Shown piece by piece: positions 1 to 24,279 of a stretch of DNA of 31,027 bases. A program made the translations under genes and the position numbers. The notes under the pieces are model-generated. The model saw nothing but the letters and a program-made list of their open reading frames with translations. It ran no database searches and was not told the origin of the DNA. Numbering within the stretch: position 1 is the stretch's first letter; every line of letters begins with the position of its first letter. Source of the stretch: an uncultured virus (IMG/VR IMGVR_UViG_3300025033_000013) (taxonomy: Duplodnaviria > Heunggongvirae > Uroviricota > Caudoviricetes); the IMG/VR virus record IMGVR_UViG_3300025033_000013; one strand, given 5' to 3'.

Positions 1-263
1 TTTACGTGTTCATACGCTGAACCTTTACCTTCATGAATATCATTGAATCCATTCTCTTTAGTGATTACAGATTCTTTAGGTGTTACTGAACCTCTATATT
101 TAGTTCCATAATTACCAGTGAATTTTTTAGTTACTGGGTCGAAATCTCCCCATTTACTATAACCATCACCTATCCATTCAATATAATACTTTTTTCCTGT
201 TTCTGGATAGAACATTATCTCTCTTCCAGTTTCATCTCGATTAAGTAGGAAATTCTTAATCAC
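1..263 (-). CDS. Hypothetical phage protein, runs off the left edge
   Basis: Open frame read manually: (V)IKNFLLNRDETGREIMFYPETGKKYYIEWIGDGYSKWGDFDPVTKKFTGNYGTKYRGSV...; the GTG start at 263 is a guess. Confidence 0.6.
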   Translation of the reverse strand, partial: MIKNFLLNRDETGREIMFYPETGKKYYIEWIGDGYSKWGDFDPVTKKFTGNYGTKYRGSVTPKESVITKENGFNDIHEGKGSAYEHV

Positions 264-300
264 TTCTTTATTTATCCCATGATAATCAAATTTAATTTTG

Positions 301-373
301 CGGATGTCACGGGGGTCGAACCCGCAATCGCTTGAGTGACAGTCAAGCATGTTACCTACAACACCTCACATCC
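301..373 (-). tRNA. tRNA-Asp(GTC)
   Basis: Anticodon arm CTTGA-CTGTCAC-TCAAG, T arm GCGGG-TTCGACC-CCCGT, acceptor GGATGTG/GACATCC (one mismatch), G73; CCA not encoded. Confidence 0.9.
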
Positions 374-382
374 GTTTATAAC

Positions 383-416
383 AAAAAAAAATCTCATCCG
401 ATTTGGATGAGATTTT
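383..416 (-). terminator. Intrinsic terminator (attenuator) upstream of tRNA-Asp
   Basis: AAAATCTCATCC-AAATC-GGATGAGAT followed by a long U run, ending about 10 nt before the tRNA 5' end. Confidence 0.85.
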
Positions 417-447
417 GTCTTATTGTTTTTATTATTTTTTAAATAAC

Positions 448-543
448 TTAACTTTCATTTTTGACAATTCTCATCCTACCCAAGCTAAAATCTGCCTCGG
501 CTGCGAAAAATTCGTTTTCAAATATGTTAATTAAGTTTCTCAT
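448..543 (-). CDS. Putative leader peptide MRNLINIFENEFFAAEADFSLGRMRIVKNES (31 aa)
   Basis: ATG..TAA between promoter and terminator; F/E/A/D-rich block; contains GGATGAGAATTGTC, complementary to the terminator 5' arm. Confidence 0.7.
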   Translation of the reverse strand: MRNLINIFENEFFAAEADFSLGRMRIVKNES

Positions 544-591
544 TACTTTTATTTTGTGGTACTTTATTAATACCGTTATTAATATATAGTG

Positions 592-623
592 CAAATATAG
601 TAAATGTTTCAATATAAAACAAA
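592..623 (-). promoter_or_regulatory. Bacteroidota sigma-A promoter (-33 TTTG, -7 TATATTTG)
   Basis: TTTG-N20-TATATTTG upstream of the leader ORF. Confidence 0.8.
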
Positions 624-691
624 TTTTTTTGCAATTATTTTTAAATTATTTTTAAATTATTTGATTTTCAATTAATTAAAACCTTGATTTT

Positions 692-1141
692 TTAAATTAA
701 TTTCAGAACTTTACCTAATTCAATGCTAAGTATTTCAGAATCATCAAATGCCACATAAGAAAAACCTTTTTCTTTAACCCTATCCATCATAACACTACCA
801 GTGTCATATGGTACACCTAAAGCGTGACATAACTCTCTATATAGCCTTGCTTTTAATATTAATCTATCTAAACGAACTTTGGGGTCCAATAAGATTAATT
901 TGTTATTCAAATCAATTTCAGATAAACCTTCAATTTGCTTATCCTCTTTTGCTATTAGTATATAACTAACTTTACTTAATAATTGTTCTTGAATATCGTA
1001 GCCATTTTGGGCGGCTTCGTCAACGAATTCCTCAAGATATTGAACAATAAGTGAATCGTTCATAATTACTGACCCATTGGTTTGTCCAAAACTAAAGGTT
1101 AATGTCAACATTAATAATACAAGTAGGGCTGTTTTTTTCAT
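692..1141 (-). CDS. Secreted protein with degenerate metzincin-like motif
   Basis: Signal peptide; RELCHALG resembles HExxH with the first His replaced by Arg; SVMM Met-turn-like segment. Confidence 0.55.
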   Translation of the reverse strand: MKKTALLVLLMLTLTFSFGQTNGSVIMNDSLIVQYLEEFVDEAAQNGYDIQEQLLSKVSYILIAKEDKQIEGLSEIDLNNKLILLDPKVRLDRLILKARLYRELCHALGVPYDTGSVMMDRVKEKGFSYVAFDDSEILSIELGKVLKLI

Positions 1142-1167
1142 GTTTTTCTAATTTTAATTCGGCTAAT

Positions 1168-1482
1168 TTATGAATTCTTTTTTAGATAGCCTAATTTTTT
1201 CCATTTTTTTTTCAAAATGCTTATTCTATTTATACCTATTTCGTTGATATGATTGTTTTCATCGACATAATCAGGGTATTGTTCAGCATAAAACTTTTTA
1301 ACATCTTGAGATTTGTTGATTAAAATTTCAGCATTCTCAATCATTTTATTCAAAGCATTTAATTTATCTAATAATTCTTCATCATAAGTTTTTAACAACT
1401 CCTTCCTTAGATTTTCTCTAATTGGGTAGATATTTTTTAATGCTTCAACTAATTCTTCGTTTAAATTTTCATTTAGATTCAT
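1168..1482 (-). CDS. Hypothetical protein
   Basis: 104-aa ORF, ATGA overlap with the upstream ORF. Confidence 0.65.
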   Translation of the reverse strand: MNLNENLNEELVEALKNIYPIRENLRKELLKTYDEELLDKLNALNKMIENAEILINKSQDVKKFYAEQYPDYVDENNHINEIGINRISILKKKWKKLGYLKKNS

Positions 1483-1673
1483 ATAAATAATTTTACCATC
1501 TCTTGTTCTAAAATTGATAACCTATGTCTTAAATGATTAAGTTTATTATCGTATTCTTCGGATGTTGTGTTAATACCAGCATTTGCTGATTGTAATTTTG
1601 ATATCTCCCTTTGGATAACATCACTTTCTCTTGTTAAGCTTTCAAATCTTTCAGCTTTTTCTGTTTGTGTCAT
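1479..1673 (-). CDS. Small coiled-coil hypothetical protein
   Basis: 64-aa ORF with heptad-like pattern; TATTTAT motif upstream. Confidence 0.65.
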   Translation of the reverse strand: MTQTEKAERFESLTRESDVIQREISKLQSANAGINTTSEEYDNKLNHLRHRLSILEQEMVKLFI

Positions 1674-1787
1674 AATATTAATTATTTTATATACCTAATA
1701 TATTCAATAAATAGTATTAATCAATAGTTTAGCTAAAATAATTGTTATTATTTTAGCTACAAAACTTATTCGACTAAATACCAGTAT

Positions 1788-2015
1788 TATAGATTATGTA
1801 TTATTTTATGAATATCTCTAGGGGATACCAATGTGCATTATTTGGTAATTTCTTCAATACGTTTTTTTGGTATATCATAGTGATTCTTATGGAATCAACA
1901 TCGTTTGATGTTTAAATCTTTGGCCATTGCGTGTAGATTTTCAGTGAACTACCCATTAGCTAAAGACCAATGGGTTTTACGCTCCAAAATATAAATATGT
2001 AGAAAGGTACAAAAG
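1788..2015 (-). pseudogene. DUF4031-like pseudogene interrupted by a mini-IS
   Basis: ENLHAMAKDLNIKRC*FHKNHYDIPKKRIEEITK*CTLVSPRDI: LHxMA...WF...HYD pattern with two in-frame stops. Confidence 0.5.
1944..1990 (-). mobile_element. 47-bp minimal non-autonomous IS605/TnpB derivative (left and right ends sharing one hairpin)
   Basis: TTTAT|ATTTTGGAGCGTAAAACCCATTGGTCTTTAGCTAATGGGTAGTTCAC matches both ends of the element at 22920-24279. Confidence 0.8.
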
Positions 2016-2023
2016 TTCCAAAG

Positions 2024-2301
2024 TCCCTCTAGTCAGAATCGAACTGACGAAATCGTGGGGTCTACTTACTTAAAGAACTTTTAATCCATTTTCTAATTGC
2101 GTTATCCGTAACAGTTAGGAAAAATTAAATTATTTTTACTTTAAAATTAATACTTCGGATTGTACCCTTACTCAGAGTCGAACTGAGAACGTTTCTTATG
2201 TTTTCCACTGGGTCTAAACCAGCAAGCTTTGCCATTTTGCTCATAAGGGCAGTTTAATAATAATAAAAGCCACGCTGAATTCCAACGTACAGCATAGAGG
2301 G
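2024..2301 (-). pseudogene. tRNA (probably Leu-TAG) split at the anticodon loop by a ~200-bp insert
   Basis: 5' half 2301-2267 (CCCTCTA TG CTG..CAG C GTGGC TT) and 3' half 2064-2024 (TAG AC CCCAC GATTTC GTCAG TTCGATT CTGAC TAGAGGG A); perfect 7-bp acceptor stem between the halves. Confidence 0.75.
2163..2250 (-). tRNA. tRNA-Leu(TAG), nested inside the split tRNA
   Basis: Acceptor GCCCTTA/TAAGGGT, anticodon arm GCTGG-TTTAGAC-CCAGT, long variable region, T arm CTCAG-TTCGACT-CTGAG, A73. Confidence 0.85.
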
Positions 2302-2448
2302 TTATTTTATTCTAATTGTAATTCTATATATTTTATCTTCATAGTCATGTTCCCACCTAACAACATCAACTCGTTTATGCCATTCACTAATTTCATATTT
2401 AGAACCTTTCATGTCAACTTCCGAAACTTCAATTGTATGCGTTTTCAT
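2302..2448 (-). CDS. Small hypothetical protein (48 aa, MKTHTIEVSEVDMKG...)
   Basis: ORF read manually in the tRNA cluster spacer. Confidence 0.45.
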   Translation of the reverse strand: MKTHTIEVSEVDMKGSKYEISEWHKRVDVVRWEHDYEDKIYRITIRIK

Positions 2449-2629
2449 TGTTTTTAAACTTATTGATTAATTTATATGTTGCAAAATTTTCAGTTACGTT
2501 AAAATTATAACCAAAAAACCTAAAACGAAACCCTTTCACATATTTATATTTTCTATATACCCAAAAATAGTTAATTTTTGGAACATCTTTAAATATTGAA
2601 TACGGAGTTTTTGTTATTCTAATTTCCAT
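2429..2629 (-). CDS. Small hypothetical protein (MEIRITKTPY...)
   Basis: ORF-track entry trimmed to the ATG at 2629 because the longer start overlaps a tRNA. Confidence 0.5.
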   Translation of the reverse strand: MEIRITKTPYSIFKDVPKINYFWVYRKYKYVKGFRFRFFGYNFNVTENFATYKLINKFKNNENAYN

Positions 2630-2642
2630 AATTTTAATTTTG

Positions 2643-2717
2643 TACCCCAGTGGGAATCGAACCCACGAAACGACAGGGCTTAAACCTGTTGTGCATTCCA
2701 ACGTGCACCATGGGGGT
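2643..2717 (-). tRNA. tRNA-Leu(TAA), short variable loop; acceptor 3' strand one G short
   Basis: ACAGG-TTTAAGC-CCTGT, GTGGG-TTCGATT-CCCAC; acceptor ACCCCCA vs TGGGGT-A. Confidence 0.75.
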
Positions 2718-2719
2718 GC

Positions 2720-2881
2720 TTACATAAAAATTGATATATTATTATCGTTTTTTATTATTTTACTACATGTTAATTTTTCTATTATTTCAAAATAACCTTC
2801 TATATTTGATGACTTTGTTTTAACCAATTCATTCATAGACATTTCAACTTTTGGTGCTATTATTTTATTCCAATTTTTCAT
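2720..2881 (-). CDS. Small hypothetical protein (53 aa)
   Basis: ATG..TAA ORF exactly filling the spacer between two tRNAs. Confidence 0.35.
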   Translation of the reverse strand: MKNWNKIIAPKVEMSMNELVKTKSSNIEGYFEIIEKLTCSKIIKNDNNISIFM

Positions 2882-2882
2882 G

Positions 2883-2956
2883 TAGCCCCATTAGGAATCG
2901 AACCTAAGACCTTCTCCGTGTAAAAGAGACGCTCTAAACCACTGAGCTATGGGGCC
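2883..2956 (-). tRNA. tRNA-Val(TAC)
   Basis: Canonical cloverleaf, TCTCT-TTTACAC-GGAGA, A73. Confidence 0.95.
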
Positions 2957-2961
2957 AATTG

Positions 2962-3047
2962 TGGGGATGGTGGGAGTCGAACCCACACGCCCCTTTCGAG
3001 GCACTGATGCTTAAAACCAGCGTGTCTACCAATTCCACCACATCCCC
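2962..3047 (-). tRNA. tRNA-Leu(TAA), class II
   Basis: GGGGATG/CATCCCC, CTGGT-TTTAAGC-ATCAG, variable arm GCCTC-GAAA-GGGGC. Confidence 0.95.
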
Positions 3048-3060
3048 ATTATCATCTAAA

Positions 3061-3192
3061 TAACTGCAATAGGATTCGAACCTATACGTATATGCCTATA
3101 ACAGAGGGTTCACCCTTCAACCCAGATGGCAAGTCTGCGGCTAGTCATTAAGACGGTTAGGTCCCCGTGGCTACCAATTTCACCATACGCTC
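3061..3192 (-). ncRNA. 132-nt tRNA-like RNA with expanded multi-hairpin centre
   Basis: Leu-like D arm GTG-AAATTGGTAGC-CAC and T arm ATAGG-TTCGAAT-CCTAT, but no canonical anticodon loop and an imperfect acceptor. Confidence 0.55.
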
Positions 3193-3252
3193 ATTTAGAT
3201 ATTCAGACCATCATTTTATGTTGCAACATAACAGATGGCCTCACAATTGTTG

Positions 3253-3338
3253 TGCGGCCAGAGGGATTCGAACCCCCGTTATACTATTCGCCCCCACCTT
3301 GTAAGGGTGGTGCTCTTGACCTACTGAACTATGGCCGC
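3253..3338 (-). tRNA. tRNA-Val(TAC) with 16-nt variable region
   Basis: GCGGCCA/TGGCCGC, CCACC-CTTACAA-GGTGG, T arm intact. Confidence 0.85.
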
Positions 3339-3350
3339 ATTTTTATTTTG

Positions 3351-3435
3351 AGCACTAGGTTGGATTCGAACCAACGTTGAGATTTCTCTGGCGGTTTTGC
3401 AGACCACCCCCTTCGACCACTCGGAGCACTAGTGC
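3351..3435 (-). tRNA. tRNA-Cys(GCA) with long variable arm
   Basis: GCACTAG/CTAGTGC, GTGGT-CTGCAAA-ACCGC, U73 Cys discriminator. Confidence 0.9.
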
Positions 3436-3437
3436 AT

Positions 3438-3469
3438 AAAAAAGCTCGATGCGTTAACATCGAGCTTTT
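3438..3469 (-). terminator. Intrinsic terminator (attenuator) abutting tRNA-Cys
   Basis: AAAAGCTCGATG-TTAACG-CATCGAGCTTTTTT, 2 nt before the tRNA 5' end. Confidence 0.85.
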
Positions 3470-3501
3470 ATAACAATTTAAAAAATATATAAATAAATCC
3501 T

Positions 3502-3585
3502 TTAAGTAATTACATAACTCGATGTGTCAGTACACACGACCAACAGACATAAAGATAATAAAGTTACTAAAGTTTTCATTTTCAT
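3502..3585 (-). CDS. Putative leader peptide MKMKTLVTLLSLCLLVVCTDTSSYVIT (27 aa)
   Basis: 11 of codons 6-18 are Leu/Val/Cys; contains ACATCGAGTT, complementary to the terminator 5' arm. Confidence 0.75.
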   Translation of the reverse strand: MKMKTLVTLLSLCLLVVCTDTSSYVIT

Positions 3586-3672
3586 TTTTATTTAAGAGAC
3601 TGTTCAGATTCAATCCTTTCCCATTTGGGTTTGTCCAGATGTATTATCCTATCTCTTGTTAATATATATGTG

Positions 3673-3704
3673 CAAATATAGTAATTGTTTAAATAAAAAA
3701 CAAG
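3673..3704 (-). promoter_or_regulatory. Bacteroidota sigma-A promoter for the leader/tRNA cluster
   Basis: CTTG-N20-TATATTTG. Confidence 0.75.
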
Positions 3705-3726
3705 TTTTTTTATACTTTTTTTTAAA

Positions 3727-4086
3727 TTATTTTTTAACTTCCTCATTATCAAGGTAATAATTCTTATAATTTATAAGAATACCTAAGCATGGTAGGTCTG
3801 ACCTTGTGATTAAATCGATTTCATGCTCATCATCATCATAATGCATATCGAATGTTTTAAGAAAATGAACTTTATCTTGAAATTTGGTAAAGTGTATATT
3901 TTCTTTTTTAATCCCTAATCTATTGGCCACTTTATATAAATACTCATTTGTAAACCCTAGACTATCATCTTCATGTTGCCTAGTGGTGGTAATATGAACT
4001 TCGTCACCATATTTAATATGACGTTTAGCCAACCTTTGAATTAAAGGTGTTGATAGCGTACTATCAAAATCAAAACTAACTTTCAT
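3727..4086 (-). CDS. HAD-superfamily phosphatase-like protein
   Basis: Motif I SFDFDSTL, TTR, conserved K, HYDDD motif IV. Confidence 0.75.
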   Translation of the reverse strand: MKVSFDFDSTLSTPLIQRLAKRHIKYGDEVHITTTRQHEDDSLGFTNEYLYKVANRLGIKKENIHFTKFQDKVHFLKTFDMHYDDDEHEIDLITRSDLPCLGILINYKNYYLDNEEVKK

Positions 4087-4667
4087 TATAATGTTTTTCG
4101 GTAATCCCTAATTTGAGTTAAATAATCGTCTAATTTTGTAACATCTTCTTTTTTAAGTGCGTCTAGTATTAGGGGTTTTAATTTTAATAATAAATTTTTA
4201 AGACCAGTATCCCAGTCTCTCAATCTTGCCGCTTCTTCAAAATCTTCAACTTCTATTGCAAGTGCTAACTGTTCTGTAAATGGTAAAGGTAATATATCTT
4301 CGTAATCAATATCTATAACATTTTCTTTACCGTATGGGTAATTTGGTTTATTGGAATATAATCCATTCATAATATCAAAGGGGTTTTTAAGGTTAAATTG
4401 GCCTATTTTAATTAAATTAACGCTACATATTGGTCCATCAAGGGTATTCCAGATTAATCTAGAAGCTACCCACTCAGTACCTGATATTGTTTTAATATCA
4501 TCAGCATCACCTAGAGTTTTAAAATCAATTGTTTTAAGGTCTTCCTCAGTGATTATTGTCACATTTTCAATACCATTAAAAAATAAGTTTAAAATTTCCT
4601 CAGATATGGGAATTTTTTTCTCATTTAAAAATCTTTTAGCTTTCTCAAATTGCTCGTCTTCCATCAT
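4086..4667 (-). CDS. Hypothetical protein with UVR (UvrB/C) motif
   Basis: LALAIEVEDFEEAARLRD. Confidence 0.7.
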   Translation of the reverse strand: MMEDEQFEKAKRFLNEKKIPISEEILNLFFNGIENVTIITEEDLKTIDFKTLGDADDIKTISGTEWVASRLIWNTLDGPICSVNLIKIGQFNLKNPFDIMNGLYSNKPNYPYGKENVIDIDYEDILPLPFTEQLALAIEVEDFEEAARLRDWDTGLKNLLLKLKPLILDALKKEDVTKLDDYLTQIRDYRKTL

Positions 4668-4719
4668 TAATTTTTATAGTACAAATATATGAATTTATTA
4701 AGTCTTACACAAATAAATA

Positions 4720-5601
4720 TCAATATTCTTTGATAATATCTGTTAAATATTGACCGTATCCACTTTTACCCAACGAATGTGACAGTTCAACGAGTTGTTG
4801 TGAATCAATATATCGCATTCTCCAAGCAACTTCTTCAATACAACCTATTTTAAGGTTTTGAAGATTTTGGGTTGCTTTGACAAAATCACTAGCTTCATTC
4901 AATGAATCAAATGTCCCAGTATCTAACCAAGCAGTACCTCTATTTAATTTAACAACGGCTAAAGAATTATTTTCTAAGTATACTTGATTAATTGAAGATA
5001 TTTCTAATTCACCTCTATCACTAGGTTGTATAGTTTTAGCTATATTAATCACACTATTAGGGTAAAAATATAAACCTGGTATTGCATATCCAGATTTAGG
5101 GGTTTCAGGTTTTTCTTCAATTGATATTACGCTACCTTCAGAATCAAATTCCACAACACCAAATCTTTCAGGGTCTTTTACGTGGTACCCAAAAATAATT
5201 CCAGCTTCAAAACCAGTATCAATATCTTCAACGCATTGCTGTAAAATTTTAGATAAACCACCACTATAAAATATATTATCACCTAATATCAATGCTACAC
5301 TATCACTTCCAATAAATTCTTCACCTATAATAAATGCTTCAGCTAACCCATTGGGCTGTTCTTGAACAGCATACTCAAATCTACAACCTAAATGAGTTCC
5401 ATCACCCAATAATTTTTTAAATAAGTGTTGGTCCTCTGGGGTTGTAATTATAAGTATTTCATTAATTCCAGCCAACATAAGCGTTGATAATGGGTAATAA
5501 ATCATTGGTTTATCGTATATTGGCATTAGTTGTTTACTAACGCTAATTGTGAGTGGGTGCAACCTTGTTCCAGCACCGCCAGCTAATATAATTCCTTTCA
5601 T
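4720..5601 (-). CDS. rmlA: Glucose-1-phosphate thymidylyltransferase
   Basis: [18 protein letters not shown]...[39 protein letters not shown]. Confidence 0.97.
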
Positions 5602-14212: not shown

Positions 14213-15172
14213 TCAAAGTTTATTATATTCCTCTAAAAAGAGTTCTCGAACCTTTGTTGAAATGTATTTGTTGACATCTTTTGATTGGAGGTTATTATCT
14301 TCTAAAACATCCTTTTCTTCGGCCATAATATCATTCACAACCCATCTAATGATATCACCCATTTTTTTAATGTCAATATCTCCGTTAGGGAAAATAATGC
14401 CCATACCTTGTTCAAATCTATTTTGAGTTACAGCGTAACCAACAAATTCATGGATAGAATTTATTTTCTCAGTATCAACTTTAGCTAAAGTCTTAACTTT
14501 AGATGCGCTATGTCGTTCACCCTTCACTTTGAAACGGTAATCATGACCATCAACCGTTGCACACCAAACCACACCCTCACCAATTCCTTCAATACCAAAA
14601 GCTTTACCTACGGGGCATAATTCTTCAACTGCAATGGTAATCTCACTTAATTCATTTTGAGCCAAATCAGGTCTATTAAAATCAATTTCGATTTCATAAG
14701 ATAAGAAATCTTCAACATTATAAATTCTATGGTCAATATCTCTTAAATAGTGAGAAGCTAAATGATATGGTTTAGTACTATCTTCAGGTACAACTTTTAC
14801 GTCAAATATGAAAAATGACTTTTCTATTTGAGATATTGCAACTCCTTTTTGGATGCCTTTACCAGCCCATTCACCGAATACAATAACAGTATCGTTTGGG
14901 TTAATCTTATGGTTTACATATCTAACATGTTCAACCAATTCAAGGAATGCTTGTTTATTATCTTCAACATACCTTGCAAACCCCATATTATCATTTTCAG
15001 GAGTTATAATATTACTTCTAGATTGTGCCCAAATACCATCATTTTCAGTATGTCCAATACCCGCATTTGAATTATGCACCAAAATGTCATTTACAAAAAA
15101 ACAATTTGTGTCTTGTATCGTAAGGTCAAATGACCTTCTTTCTTTTATTTTATTTATCTTTTTTAATTTCAT
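14213..15172 (-). CDS. Split-intein C-part (34 aa) + C-extein of Rnl2-family RNA ligase
   Basis: FDLTIQDTNCFFVNDILVHN|SNAG; QSR, FGEWAG, FFIFDV, EGVV, FKVK ligase motifs. Confidence 0.9.
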   Translation of the reverse strand: MKLKKINKIKERRSFDLTIQDTNCFFVNDILVHNSNAGIGHTENDGIWAQSRSNIITPENDNMGFARYVEDNKQAFLELVEHVRYVNHKINPNDTVIVFGEWAGKGIQKGVAISQIEKSFFIFDVKVVPEDSTKPYHLASHYLRDIDHRIYNVEDFLSYEIEIDFNRPDLAQNELSEITIAVEELCPVGKAFGIEGIGEGVVWCATVDGHDYRFKVKGERHSASKVKTLAKVDTEKINSIHEFVGYAVTQNRFEQGMGIIFPNGDIDIKKMGDIIRWVVNDIMAEEKDVLEDNNLQSKDVNKYISTKVRELFLEEYNKL

Positions 15173-18182: not shown

Positions 18183-18797
18183 TTATTCTTTTAAATTATT
18201 CATTAGTTTGTCAAAGATACGAAAATAATTTCTAGAATCAAAATTTTCTGGAAGTATTTTTTTAAAATCCGCATATAAATTATTGCATGCTTGAAAATCA
18301 ATAATCTTTTTATGCTCTTTTAATTGTAATCCAAATTGTAATATCCTCAAAGCATGGAACATACTCTTTATTGCATGTTCACCATCACCATTCTTTGATG
18401 CCATATTAGCATAGTGACGACTATCAGATGCCTTTCTGATAACTTGTTTAATCATTTCTTTGGTATTCCAATTGGTTACCTTAAAGGGCCATTTCTTGAA
18501 TACCACTTGAGAATCATCCAATGATAAACACTCCAATGCGATTATATCATACCTATTAATAGCGTCTAAGAATCCACCTCTTGAGTATACTGTACCTTGA
18601 ATTGAATAATCTTCATTAGAAATTGCATTATTCTTAAATGCACCATTATCTAACATAGCACCTTTCATGACTATAATAAAATCATGGTCAGAAGTTTCAG
18701 TCGCTGTACCATATATTTGAGAGCCGTACCCAAAAACCGCTAGAACTTCTCCAGTTATCTTCAATTCACTTAAAATTGTATCTAATGTTAATTTCAT
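18183..18797 (-). CDS. Pol-beta-superfamily nucleotidyltransferase (RlaP-like)
   Basis: YGSQIYGTATETSDHDF; C-terminal KSMFHALRIL. Confidence 0.8.
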   Translation of the reverse strand: MKLTLDTILSELKITGEVLAVFGYGSQIYGTATETSDHDFIIVMKGAMLDNGAFKNNAISNEDYSIQGTVYSRGGFLDAINRYDIIALECLSLDDSQVVFKKWPFKVTNWNTKEMIKQVIRKASDSRHYANMASKNGDGEHAIKSMFHALRILQFGLQLKEHKKIIDFQACNNLYADFKKILPENFDSRNYFRIFDKLMNNLKE

Positions 18798-19800: not shown

Positions 19801-20760
19801 TTTTGTTAATATTTCATATAAATCTTTATTATTCATATTGATTATATATTCTCTAATCGTGTTAATTTTACCATCTTTTAACCCAAAAAACAATCCAGTG
19901 TGACGAGTATTTTTGAAGTGTTTATTAGATACTTCAAATACTTTCATCGCAAACCTCTTTTGTTCTTGTTTAGTTATGTTTTTAGGTTTATATGGTATTA
20001 ATTCTACCCAAGCATTTTCCAAATCATCAGTCAATTTTACTAACCCTTCTTTAAGTTGAATTATTTCTTCAGACCTTTCTGGGAACGTTGCAATCCATTC
20101 ATCAACTTCATTAGTTTTTAACACCTCTAATATATGGTGATTACCTAATTTACTTTTAGTATAATGCATTGCAACATAAGCTGGGTTTTTTAACTTGATT
20201 CTATTGAAATTAGCATCAACTACAACATAACCTTCTTCAGAGAATGACATACCTTCAAATGTCGCCATTAAATGACCAGCATTTGATGCATTAATGTTAA
20301 AAGATTTAACTAATGGTAACCCAATATCAGTAGATATTGTATATAAATCATTAAAACCATACTCATTTAACGTATCTAAATCTCTAACACCTAATAATGA
20401 TACTTTTGATTCTCCATGTGGGCAAACAACAATATTATACGGTGTCATTAATTCAAACATATATGTTCTACCTCTAACCATTCTATCCCAATTAAAACCA
20501 TATTTTGGTGATGTAATTGTATCCCAAAATAATTCAGAAAACTTAGTATTTGGTTTATCATTTACTTCACCTTCACCTTCGGCCATACCAGATGTGCCAG
20601 CACACCATTTTTCAGCTACCCAATCCCAATATACTTGAATCAATGAGTTATGTACCAATATCCCATTAGCAAAGAAATTATTGGTTTCTTTGGTTTGAAT
20701 ATCATACCTCTTAGAGTCACATTCTATCTCTTTAATATGTTTTACCTTAACTATTTTCAT
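19798..20760 (-). CDS. Split-intein C-part (38 aa) + C-extein of T4 Rnl1-like RNA ligase
   Basis: YDIQTKETNNFFANGILVHN|SLI; TYMFELMTPYNIVV, EEGYVV, RIKLKNPAY. Confidence 0.9.
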   Translation of the reverse strand: MKIVKVKHIKEIECDSKRYDIQTKETNNFFANGILVHNSLIQVYWDWVAEKWCAGTSGMAEGEGEVNDKPNTKFSELFWDTITSPKYGFNWDRMVRGRTYMFELMTPYNIVVCPHGESKVSLLGVRDLDTLNEYGFNDLYTISTDIGLPLVKSFNINASNAGHLMATFEGMSFSEEGYVVVDANFNRIKLKNPAYVAMHYTKSKLGNHHILEVLKTNEVDEWIATFPERSEEIIQLKEGLVKLTDDLENAWVELIPYKPKNITKQEQKRFAMKVFEVSNKHFKNTRHTGLFFGLKDGKINTIREYIINMNNKDLYEILTK

Positions 20761-22919: not shown

Positions 22920-24279
22920 AAAAAGGAGCGTAAAACCCATTCATCGCAAAGCGTGGATGGGATGTAAGCGACAAAGGTATGATTAACCTTGGCTTAAAAT
23001 ATATTGAACGGCTAAGTATGACAAATTTACATAAAACTATATTTTGGCATAAATTTTGATGTATAATAGGTATGAAAATGATTAATAAGACATATAAGTT
23101 TCGTCTTTTTCCAACAAATGAGCAAGAAGTGCTATTAAATCAACACTTTGGTCACTCTCGTTGGGTGTATAACCATTTTCTAAATGAACGCAAAGAACAA
23201 TACCAAGCGGATAAAAAGTCTGACAATTATTACAAACAAGCTGCCACTTTGACAAAACTTAAAAAAGAAGAAAAGACTATGTGGTTGAAAGAAGTTAATA
23301 GTCAAACTTTACAATTCGCTCTACGCTCTTTAGATACAGCTTTTTTAAACTTTTTTAGAGGTAATGCACAATTCCCAAAGTTTAAATCTCGTAAACATAA
23401 AAATACTTTTACCATACCTCAATTTGGTAGTATAGAAGGAGATAAAATTAATATACCAAAATTTAAAGAAGGTATTAAAGTTAAACTTCACAGAGAAGTC
23501 AAAGGTAAGATTGGTAAAATGATAATTACCAAAACACCAACAGGTAAATATTATGTTTCAATATTTACAGAACAACAGAATAAAGAATTACCTAAAACAA
23601 ATAAACAAGTTGGAATAGATTTAGGTTTAAAGGATTTTGTAATTACTTCTGATAATGCTAAATTCAAAAATAATAGATATACAAAAAAATATGCAAAACA
23701 ATTAAAAAAAGCACAACAACATCTTTCTCGTAAACAAAAAGGTAGTAATGGGTTTGAAAAACAAAAACTCAAAGTTGCTAAAATTCACGAGAAAATTGCA
23801 AGTTGTAGATTAGACACTTTACATAAGGTTTCACATAAACTGGTTAATCAATATGATTTAATATCAGTTGAGGACTTAAATGTAAAAGGTATGATTAAAA
23901 ACCACAAATTATCAAAACATATTGCCGATGCAAGTTGGGGTAATTTTGTTACATTACTTCAATATAAGTGTGATTGGTATGGAAAAGAACTTGTAAAAGT
24001 TAATCGTTTCTATCCTAGCTCGAAGACTTGTGGAGACTGTGGTTGGATAAATCAAAATTTAAAACTTTCTGATAGAGAATGGACTTGTAACTCGTGCGGT
24101 GTAATACACGACAGAGATGTAAATGCAAGTAGAAATATTCTCAAAGAAGGTTTAAAAATAATATCGGGTGGGATGCTCGATAACACTGATGGAGACTCAA
24201 ATAAGACTTCTATAAAGAAGCACAAGTCTGTGAAATCAGAAGCCCAACCCATCGCCTCTGGCGTGGGTGGGTAGTTCAC
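22920..24279 (+). mobile_element. IS200/IS605-family TnpB-only element
   Basis: Subterminal hairpins at both ends; begins after TTTAT and ends GTAGTTCAC; no tnpA. Confidence 0.88.
23072..24274 (+). CDS. tnpB: RNA-guided endonuclease TnpB
   Basis: HTH N-terminus, GIDLG, VEDL, SSKTC..CG..WTC..CG zinc finger, DRDVNA; RuvC D-E-D intact. Confidence 0.95.
   Translation: MKMINKTYKFRLFPTNEQEVLLNQHFGHSRWVYNHFLNERKEQYQADKKSDNYYKQAATLTKLKKEEKTMWLKEVNSQTLQFALRSLDTAFLNFFRGNAQFPKFKSRKHKNTFTIPQFGSIEGDKINIPKFKEGIKVKLHREVKGKIGKMIITKTPTGKYYVSIFTEQQNKELPKTNKQVGIDLGLKDFVITSDNAKFKNNRYTKKYAKQLKKAQQHLSRKQKGSNGFEKQKLKVAKIHEKIASCRLDTLHKVSHKLVNQYDLISVEDLNVKGMIKNHKLSKHIADASWGNFVTLLQYKCDWYGKELVKVNRFYPSSKTCGDCGWINQNLKLSDREWTCNSCGVIHDRDVNASRNILKEGLKIISGGMLDNTDGDSNKTSIKKHKSVKSEAQPIASGVGG

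Follow-up and report, generated by a model that had tools for sequence, protein, structure and literature searches.

When does a phage transcribe the tRNA genes that it carries? Such genes are usually viewed as a fixed supplement to codon usage or as spares against defences that cut tRNAs, and the control of their expression is, to our knowledge, largely unknown. The question is raised by a 31,027-nucleotide stretch of DNA from an uncultured virus of the Caudoviricetes (IMG/VR record IMGVR_UViG_3300025033_000013; hereafter the window), in which a promoter, a short open reading frame (ORF), an intrinsic terminator and six tRNA genes follow one another on the minus strand. The original prediction took this arrangement, here called unit A, for a leader-peptide attenuator whose codons match the tRNAs downstream, and that reading is supported by three such units in the contig to which the window belongs and by relatives of the phage. 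We consider it probable, at roughly 80%, that each unit is a ribosome-mediated (leader-peptide) transcription attenuator gating a phage tRNA operon. The elements of unit A, in the order of transcription, are as follows.

3673-3704, minus strand: promoter of the Bacteroidetes -33/-7 type, with cTTG at 3704-3701, a 20-nt spacer and TATATTTG at 3680-3673
3502-3585, minus strand: leader ORF A, MKMKTLVTLLSLCLLVVCTDTSSYVIT, 27 codons plus stop, with an A-rich start region (A at -3 and -6)
3532-3570, minus strand: putative regulatory codon block of leader A, codons 6-18, Leu/Val/Cys at 11 of 13
3544-3555, minus strand: segment 1, codons 11-14 (SLCL), predicted partner of segment 2 in the minimum-free-energy folds preceding the terminator
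3515-3526, minus strand: segment 2, the antiterminator strand CACATCGAGTTA, codons 20-24, which pairs with the 5' arm of the terminator
3438-3469, minus strand: intrinsic terminator, arms 3469-3458 and 3451-3440, T-run to 3438, -17.2 to -17.4 kcal/mol
3350-3435, minus strand: tRNA-Cys(GCA), 86 nt, long variable arm (ARAGORN; Infernal 42.8 bits)
3252-3338, minus strand: tRNA-Val(UAC), 87 nt, with a 13-nt insertion in the variable region (ARAGORN; Infernal 61.8 bits)
2961-3047, minus strand: tRNA-Leu(UAA), 87 nt (ARAGORN; Infernal 56.4 bits)
2882-2956, minus strand: tRNA-Val(UAC), 75 nt, canonical (ARAGORN; Infernal 69.3 bits)
2641-2719, minus strand: tRNA-Leu(UAA), 79 nt, atypical (ARAGORN; Infernal 36.7 bits)
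2162-2250, minus strand: tRNA-Leu(UAG), 89 nt (ARAGORN only; not listed by Infernal at E<=1)

The 27-residue leader ORF, its 11 Leu/Val/Cys codons among codons 6-18, and the strong terminator followed 2 nt after its T-run by tRNA-Cys and then by Val, Leu, Val, Leu and Leu all stand where the original prediction had placed them, the last of these being confirmed by folding and by ARAGORN, five of whose six calls were also found by Infernal. The promoter had been located correctly at 3704-3673 but described as a sigma-A site. Judged by its sequence, it matches the consensus TTTG/TAnnTTTG at -33/-7 of the Bacteroidetes, a phylum without Shine-Dalgarno sequences according to PMC6847099, and is not an E. 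coli-type sigma-70 site; likewise, the A-rich start regions of the leaders agree with what the same paper gives for initiation in this phylum. A simple consensus scan for sigma-70 hexamers and terminators was uninformative here: it returned 15 promoter-like sites where 16.5 were expected, and unit A was represented in its output by neither promoter nor terminator. The scan seeks sigma-70 hexamers, and the hairpin was presumably missed since its basal A:U pairs consume part of the T-run. Within the array, two tRNA-like halves with complementary acceptor strands (approximately 2297-2262 and 2075-2024) flank the complete tRNA-Leu(UAG) at 2250-2162 as if an insertion had split one tRNA gene, and a degenerate tRNA-like stretch lies at approximately 3190-3060, between the Val and Leu genes; neither ARAGORN nor Infernal made a call at the split or the degenerate stretches.

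The same layout of promoter, leader, terminator and tRNA genes occurs three times in the 93,027-bp contig, which has approximately 30% G+C and 22 tRNA genes called by ARAGORN, and of whose first 31 kb the window is the reverse complement. In each of these units (A, B and C) the codon block is matched to its own array, and the promoter and the first transcribed bases are nearly alike in all three. The elements of units B and C are given below.

592-622, minus strand: promoter of unit B, TTG, a 20-nt spacer and TATATTTG
448-543, minus strand: leader ORF B, MRNLINIFENEFFAAEADFSLGRMRIVKNES, with the block FENEFFAAEADF, in which 11 of 12 residues are Phe/Glu/Ala/Asp
477-468, minus strand: segment 2 of unit B, AGGATGAGAA
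383-416, minus strand: terminator of unit B, arms 416-405 and 399-388, T-run to 383, -14.9 to -15.2 kcal/mol
300-373, minus strand: tRNA-Asp(GUC), first gene of array B, the remainder of which lies outside the window
43,272-43,492 of the contig: unit C, with leader MRNYTTYTKQYQPKGGKSQGQLSIRCSDITEF and block YTTYTKQYQPKGGKSQGQ

Array B runs in the order Asp, Asp, Phe, Glu, Phe, Glu, followed farther downstream by a tRNA-Ala(UGC) seen by Infernal and, at a relaxed threshold, by ARAGORN. Array C comprises Pro, Lys, Thr, Tyr and Gln, then another Lys-like gene, called as Glu by ARAGORN, and finally Thr and Gly. This Lys-like gene (contig 44779-44858, corresponding to 14780-14859 of locus L001) is a Glu(UUC) for ARAGORN, while by eye its anticodon loop reads CTTTTAA (Lys, UUU) and its D loop is enlarged; the Infernal match is limited to the 3' part and, with 27.6 bits, falls under the cut-off. 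The leaders in the contig have 27, 31 and 32 codons, those of relatives 25-36, and the distance from stop codon to terminator arm is 32 nt in A, 31 nt in B and 30 nt in C. In unit B, 9 nt separate the T-run from the first tRNA gene, compared with 2 nt in unit A, and since neither distance leaves room for a promoter, the tRNAs of A and B would be made only by readthrough of the terminator. The sites that lie within three mismatches of the core promoter motif at genome positions 6723, 24633, 50367 and 79068 are followed by no leader, terminator or tRNA genes. In front of tRNA-Pro in unit C, a stretch of approximately 20 nt (contig ~43530-43552) is conserved in three inspected C-type units, including the equivalents in loci L093 and L103; it lacks the invariant G of the -7 box and is probably not a promoter, and it may be a processing signal.

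The correspondence between leader and array was scored as the number of residues belonging to the array's amino-acid set within the best 12-residue window of the peptide, with 437 ATG-started ORFs of 20-45 codons from the six frames as the comparison set. With the default calls of ARAGORN, leaders A, B and C scored 10, 8 and 12 against their own arrays and at most 4 against a wrong one; the best window of leader A, for example, holds 10 of 12 residues from its own set and 1 and 4 from the sets of the other arrays. Once tRNA-Ala is added to set B and the doubtful Glu is dropped from set C, the diagonal becomes 10, 11 and 12, with off-diagonal values again not exceeding 4. Each leader is the sole ORF among the 437 that attains its score, the runners-up reaching 9, 7 and 10. 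Over the whole leader the match is weaker (12 of 26 residues in A, 12 of 30 in B and 18 of 31 in C), and it sits in the central block.

Attenuation of the classical kind depends on mutually exclusive RNA structures, and both the terminator and the antiterminator state are predicted when the region is folded, as had been proposed for unit A. In fact, ACATCGAGTT at 3525-3516, which the original prediction had singled out, forms with the 5' arm of the terminator a duplex of -14.0 kcal/mol that none of 500 dinucleotide shuffles of the ORF equalled, and the antiterminator appears in the predicted fold of the nascent RNA, as it does for unit B. Extending the analysis to nine units, we found the best duplex between ORF and terminator arm at codons 18-27 in every case (equalled by 0-35 of 500 shuffles), a gap of 26-32 nt from stop codon to terminator arm, and terminator hairpins of -12 to -17.5 kcal/mol with T-runs in all nine. 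In the fold that precedes the terminator, segment 2 has a further partner in codons 7-14, inside the codon block, again in nine of nine units; together with the other pairings, this partner means that all four classical segments are present. The pairing of segments 1 and 2 is dominant in unit C only, the pairing of segments 2 and 3 being the more stable one in A and B.

In an alignment of nine distinct C-type units, 88% of the cells of the hairpins are paired, compared with 27-38% when the partners are slid against each other, and for the antiterminator the figures are 88% and 13-46%. Five pairs of the C-type hairpins show changes on both sides, which was matched by 1 of 500 shuffles. In the C-type unit of the complete relative described below, a C->U change at one position of the 5' arm is accompanied by G->A changes in both of its alternative partners (columns 138, 165 and 72), a single event. 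The behaviour of the leaders was also explored with a crude equilibrium model that bars 30 nt around the A-site of a ribosome from pairing and folds the nascent RNA as far as the loop. In this model the 5' arm of unit C is free without a ribosome or with a ribosome at the stop codon, and a stall at codons 2-16 leaves 8-9 bases of the arm paired with segment 2, so that unit C would, as modelled, resemble the trp leader in its behaviour.

The contig covers part of a larger phage. A complete relative of 360,451 bp with terminal repeats (G001) has the same gene order. Among cultured phages, the jumbo phages of Tenacibaculum (Flavobacteriia) come closest, with an A1-like protein that is 49-52% identical. 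A 19-nt motif at the promoter and transcript start occurs in exactly four copies in G001, all of them preceding tRNA arrays. Three of the corresponding units are orthologous to A, B and C, and the fourth, a type known from this genome alone, has the leader MMMQTISIHINSIMNWRRNSSTGQGMFILNGGTVAT with the block ISIHINSIMNWRRNSS, followed by His, His, Trp, Ser, four Asn, Ser, Arg and Ile genes. When the four leaders of G001 are scored against its four arrays, the diagonal of the matrix reads 10, 9, 12 and 11 and no off-diagonal value exceeds 7; the four amino-acid sets are disjoint and jointly cover 19 amino acids. A 20-kb contig (G002) carries a single unit of type A before Cys, Val, Leu, Leu, Val and Leu, and in a 110-kb contig (G003) unit C lies behind a different promoter. 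Codons 3-16, segment 2 and the core of the arm of unit A are identical at the DNA level in three genomes, while the neighbouring RfbA is just 71-72% identical; the core of segment 2, CACATCGAG, is invariant and tRNA-Cys begins 2 nt past the T-run in all three.

Further loci were retrieved from metagenomes with a degenerate pattern for the core of leader C, TYTKQYQPKGGK, yielding 20 loci, among which there are 11 distinct sequences when the leader and a further 120 nt are compared. In all 20, the downstream tRNAs on the same strand are drawn from Pro, Lys, Gly, Gln, Tyr and Thr, the doubtful Glu call of ARAGORN being extra in four near-identical copies of this phage, and the stop codon is 121-170 nt from the first tRNA gene in 19 loci and 794 nt in one. 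The match between leader codons and tRNA identity that had been anticipated for related phages is thus found in four units of G001, in one of G002 and in all 20 metagenome loci. The first leader type is represented by three distinct sequences, the second by two and the fourth by one. Other searches reached less far. A blastn comparison of the region with 50,697 phage records gave matches only to tRNA genes and no record covering at least 80% of the query, and Tenacibaculum phage PTm1 showed no tRNA match. Among sequencing runs, 23 DNA runs with the label groundwater or aquifer metagenome contain the stretch and are possible sources of it, and one metatranscriptome run contains only 0.07 of the sampled words, which is no evidence of expression. 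The sigma factor, used as a marker, retrieved only this same phage from IMG/VR, and in the phage collection remained below 60% identity (37% at best among the matches listed). The neighbouring 293-residue gene is a host-like RfbA with mostly bacterial homologues, and of the 80 IMG/VR loci retained for it only three (L017, L015 and L025, the last of these unrelated) come from diverged relatives or from unrelated phages that carry tRNA arrays.

What the sequences show is the layout of the units, the fit between codons and arrays, the alternative pairings and the conservation of these features; from this we infer that the leaders are translated, that readthrough depends on stalling, and that the switch works in the following direction. 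Transcription would start at a host-type Bacteroidetes promoter and the leader of 27-32 codons would be translated, with the run of codons in its middle encoding the amino acids of the tRNAs downstream. When decoding is fast, the ribosome would overrun segment 2 (codons 18-27) or let it re-pair with segment 1, the terminator hairpin would form, and transcription would halt just before the first tRNA gene. When decoding is slow, owing to a scarcity of usable, charged tRNA, the ribosome would stall in the block and leave segment 2 free to pair with the 5' arm of the terminator, and RNA polymerase would enter the array once this antiterminator had formed. New tRNAs would relieve the stall, and we therefore propose that each array regulates its own supply. 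The physiological trigger may be a mismatch in codon usage, decay of host tRNAs, an anticodon nuclease or starvation.

Several observations weigh against the attenuator reading. In the ribosome-mask model, an uncovered segment 2 is enough for the antiterminator to form in units A and B, that is, without a ribosome in A, and both without a ribosome and with a ribosome at the stop codon in B, and the structure is lost only while the ribosome occupies codons 19-21 (A) or later; as modelled, termination in these two units would need timing, with a ribosome that paces the polymerase and sits on segment 2 as the terminator is made. The covariation is thin, resting on five two-sided pairs in closely related sequences, and the conservation of the core peptide in the 20 metagenome loci is a product of how they were retrieved, although their adjacency to arrays is not. 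Leader A contains five Thr and three Ser residues without a corresponding tRNA in array A, and its N-terminus resembles a lipoprotein signal peptide, a likeness that leaves the other three leader types unexplained. Arg tRNAs in the contig, and Met, Phe and other tRNAs in G001, have no leader. In the B unit of G001, protein-coding ORFs follow the attenuator and a promoter-like site precedes the Asp tRNA, and control is therefore not strictly of tRNAs alone. Finally, in Tenacibaculum phage pT24, which stands closest among the cultured relatives that have tRNAs (49% identity in the A1-like protein), four clustered tRNA genes lie behind a promoter of the TAnnTTTG type that stands directly before the first tRNA, with no leader ORF and no intervening terminator.

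The alternative that survives best, to which we give a small share of the probability, is that the leaders report in general whether ribosomes follow RNA polymerase, as they would under host shut-off, global stress or translation-blocking toxins, the codon match being a secondary tuning. It is favoured by the formation of the antiterminator in A and B, in the equilibrium model, even without any translation; unit C, however, is predicted to terminate in that situation, and four leaders in the same frame with four nearly disjoint blocks, each fitting its own array, would find no explanation. Considerably less probable still is a set of independent small genes, in which each ORF is self-contained, leader A encoding a small lipoprotein or membrane peptide, and the tRNAs are expressed through constitutive leakage of the terminator. 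Small hydrophobic phage peptides are common, and the start of leader A, MKMKTLVTLLSLCLLVVC, with its basic N-terminus, hydrophobic core and Cys, looks by eye like a lipoprotein signal. Yet the mature part would count just nine residues after the second Cys, a residue that is replaced in relatives (LLVLVT), and leaders B, C and D are non-hydrophobic while sharing the same promoter, length, position of segment 2 and spacing to the terminator. Moreover, neither the pairing between ORF and terminator arm (0-35 of 500 shuffles) nor the three- and four-fold codon match is predicted by such genes.

We regard it as just as improbable that the RNA senses tRNAs independently of translation, the codon run pairing with the anticodons of free tRNAs in the manner of a T-box with many specifiers and so setting the choice of the terminator. 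Like a T-box, the element governs a terminator and relates to tRNA identity. On the other hand, we know of no precedent for a T-box with 12 to 18 specifier codons in a row, each unit opens with an ATG in an A-rich context and runs for 25-36 codons (25-33 except in the fourth type) to an in-frame stop, and the sole clear indel within a leader measures 3 nt. Neither T-box nor other Rfam leader families gave a match at E<=1 in positions 1-5000 of the window or in the 17-kb locus with units B and C (L001). Chance, by which a hydrophobic small ORF happened to precede a Leu/Val/Cys array together with an accidental 8-10-nt complement of the terminator, might be entertained for unit A alone, since any ORF resembling a signal peptide is rich in Leu and Val and the next-best ORF reaches 9 of 12, but it can practically be dismissed when three of three units in the contig and four of four in G001 fit their own arrays and not the others, each leader ranks first of 437 small ORFs, and the elements are kept across phages whose neighbouring RfbA is only 71-72% identical.

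Leader attenuators are familiar from trpL, hisL, leuL and thrL, and multivalent forms from the ilvGMEDA and thr leaders. The units described here share with the enterobacterial attenuators a short ORF near the promoter that contains a run of regulatory codons, the pairings 1:2, 2:3 and 3:4 and an intrinsic terminator, and in the enterobacterial systems a stalled ribosome likewise frees segment 2; a model of this kind for pheL is set out in PMC3082878. They differ in that the regulated genes are tRNAs and not biosynthetic enzymes, that the carrier is a phage of Bacteroidetes-type hosts, without a Shine-Dalgarno sequence, that each leader samples three to six amino acids, and that up to four units per genome share out the tRNAs for 19 amino acids. 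In fact, whereas the classical scope of such leaders is proteins of biosynthesis or aminoacylation, what lies downstream here is tRNA genes with a few small ORFs and homing-endonuclease-like genes. The E. coli pheST attenuator, with its pheM leader, controls an aminoacyl-tRNA synthetase and thus the decoding machinery and not a pathway; unlike the phage units, it is cellular, acts on a protein gene and senses one amino acid. T-box riboswitches, which need no translation and bind a single uncharged tRNA directly by means of a specifier codon and the conserved T-box sequence, resemble the phage units in making a terminator/antiterminator decision that depends on the state of tRNA, but here the element is an ORF. 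An attenuator-like leader was considered for E. coli pheV/pheU and dropped, as the pheV locus of MG1655 has only approximately 105 nt and a promoter before the tRNA. A full-text literature search found no leader-peptide control of tRNA genes, with subscription journals thinly covered, so that older work may exist.

The wider genome offers some context. The contig encodes members of the RNA-ligase family, a nucleotidyltransferase, a metallophosphatase, a DNA ligase, two sigma factors and three TnpB-like transposases. Two RNA-ligase family ORFs, the nucleotidyltransferase and the metallophosphatase (window 14216-15172, 19801-20760 and 18186-18797; L007 6225-7151) form a set that resembles a tool kit for tRNA repair and is no more than suggestive as context for the mechanism. 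No tRNA gene encodes CCA. Both ligase-family ORFs start with a sub-threshold match to a C-terminal intein splicing motif, and these genes may be interrupted by inteins. The three TnpB/IS605-like transposase ORFs (phrog_506, E down to 1e-141) lie at 23072-24271 of the window on the plus strand, at L001 3586-4701 on the minus strand and at L007 16376-17206 on the minus strand.

Many tRNAs for amino acids whose tRNAs normally have a short arm are present both as a canonical copy of 72-76 nt and as a copy of 84-97 nt with an insertion, mostly a long variable arm. The long copies in this phage are Cys (window 3435-3350, 86 nt), Val (window 3338-3252, 87 nt), Asp (contig 31240-31330, 91 nt) and Pro (contig 43553-43640, 88 nt), and those of G001 (L017 and L093-L095) are Cys (85 nt), Val (86), Asp (85), Gln (87), Lys (88), Gly (88), Thr (89), His (86), Trp (84), Asn (86), Ile (97) and Met (85). 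A tRNA with a CUA anticodon, of the amber-suppressor type, lies within or heads arrays in G003 (L105, 23790-23863) and in pT24 (191520-191593). Recoding of stop codons in the contig was considered and rejected, as reading TAG or TGA as sense brought no real gain in ORF coverage. The part of the contig from 77,500 to 93,000 (L008, L009) is covered to 14% by stop-to-stop frames of at least 150 codons, compared with 35-66% in other 15.5-kb stretches, and seems to contain numerous very small genes or else non-coding DNA.

What these units may do for the phage can be put more broadly, and here we are tentative. The lineage might spread a near-complete tRNA set, which in G001 serves 19 amino acids, over four independently gated operons whose multivalent leaders sense which class of host tRNA is limiting or has been cut, for instance by an anticodon-nuclease defence, and might replace just that class until feedback shuts the operon off, which would amount to a codon-resolved sensor for counter-defence, with the nearby RNA-ligase, nucleotidyltransferase and phosphatase genes belonging to the same programme of tRNA maintenance. 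We hold this possible, though less likely than not. The control logic of the arrays themselves can be read from the sequence, as a demand sensor that would gauge the speed of decoding on the very codons its own tRNAs read. If true, leader-peptide attenuation would extend from the supply of amino acids to the supply of tRNAs, and would reach viruses as well as the Bacteroidetes, with their lack of Shine-Dalgarno sequences. It would also give a direct handle on which host tRNAs grow limiting in infection, and the four units would constitute orthogonal, codon-specific transcriptional switches for Bacteroidetes hosts.

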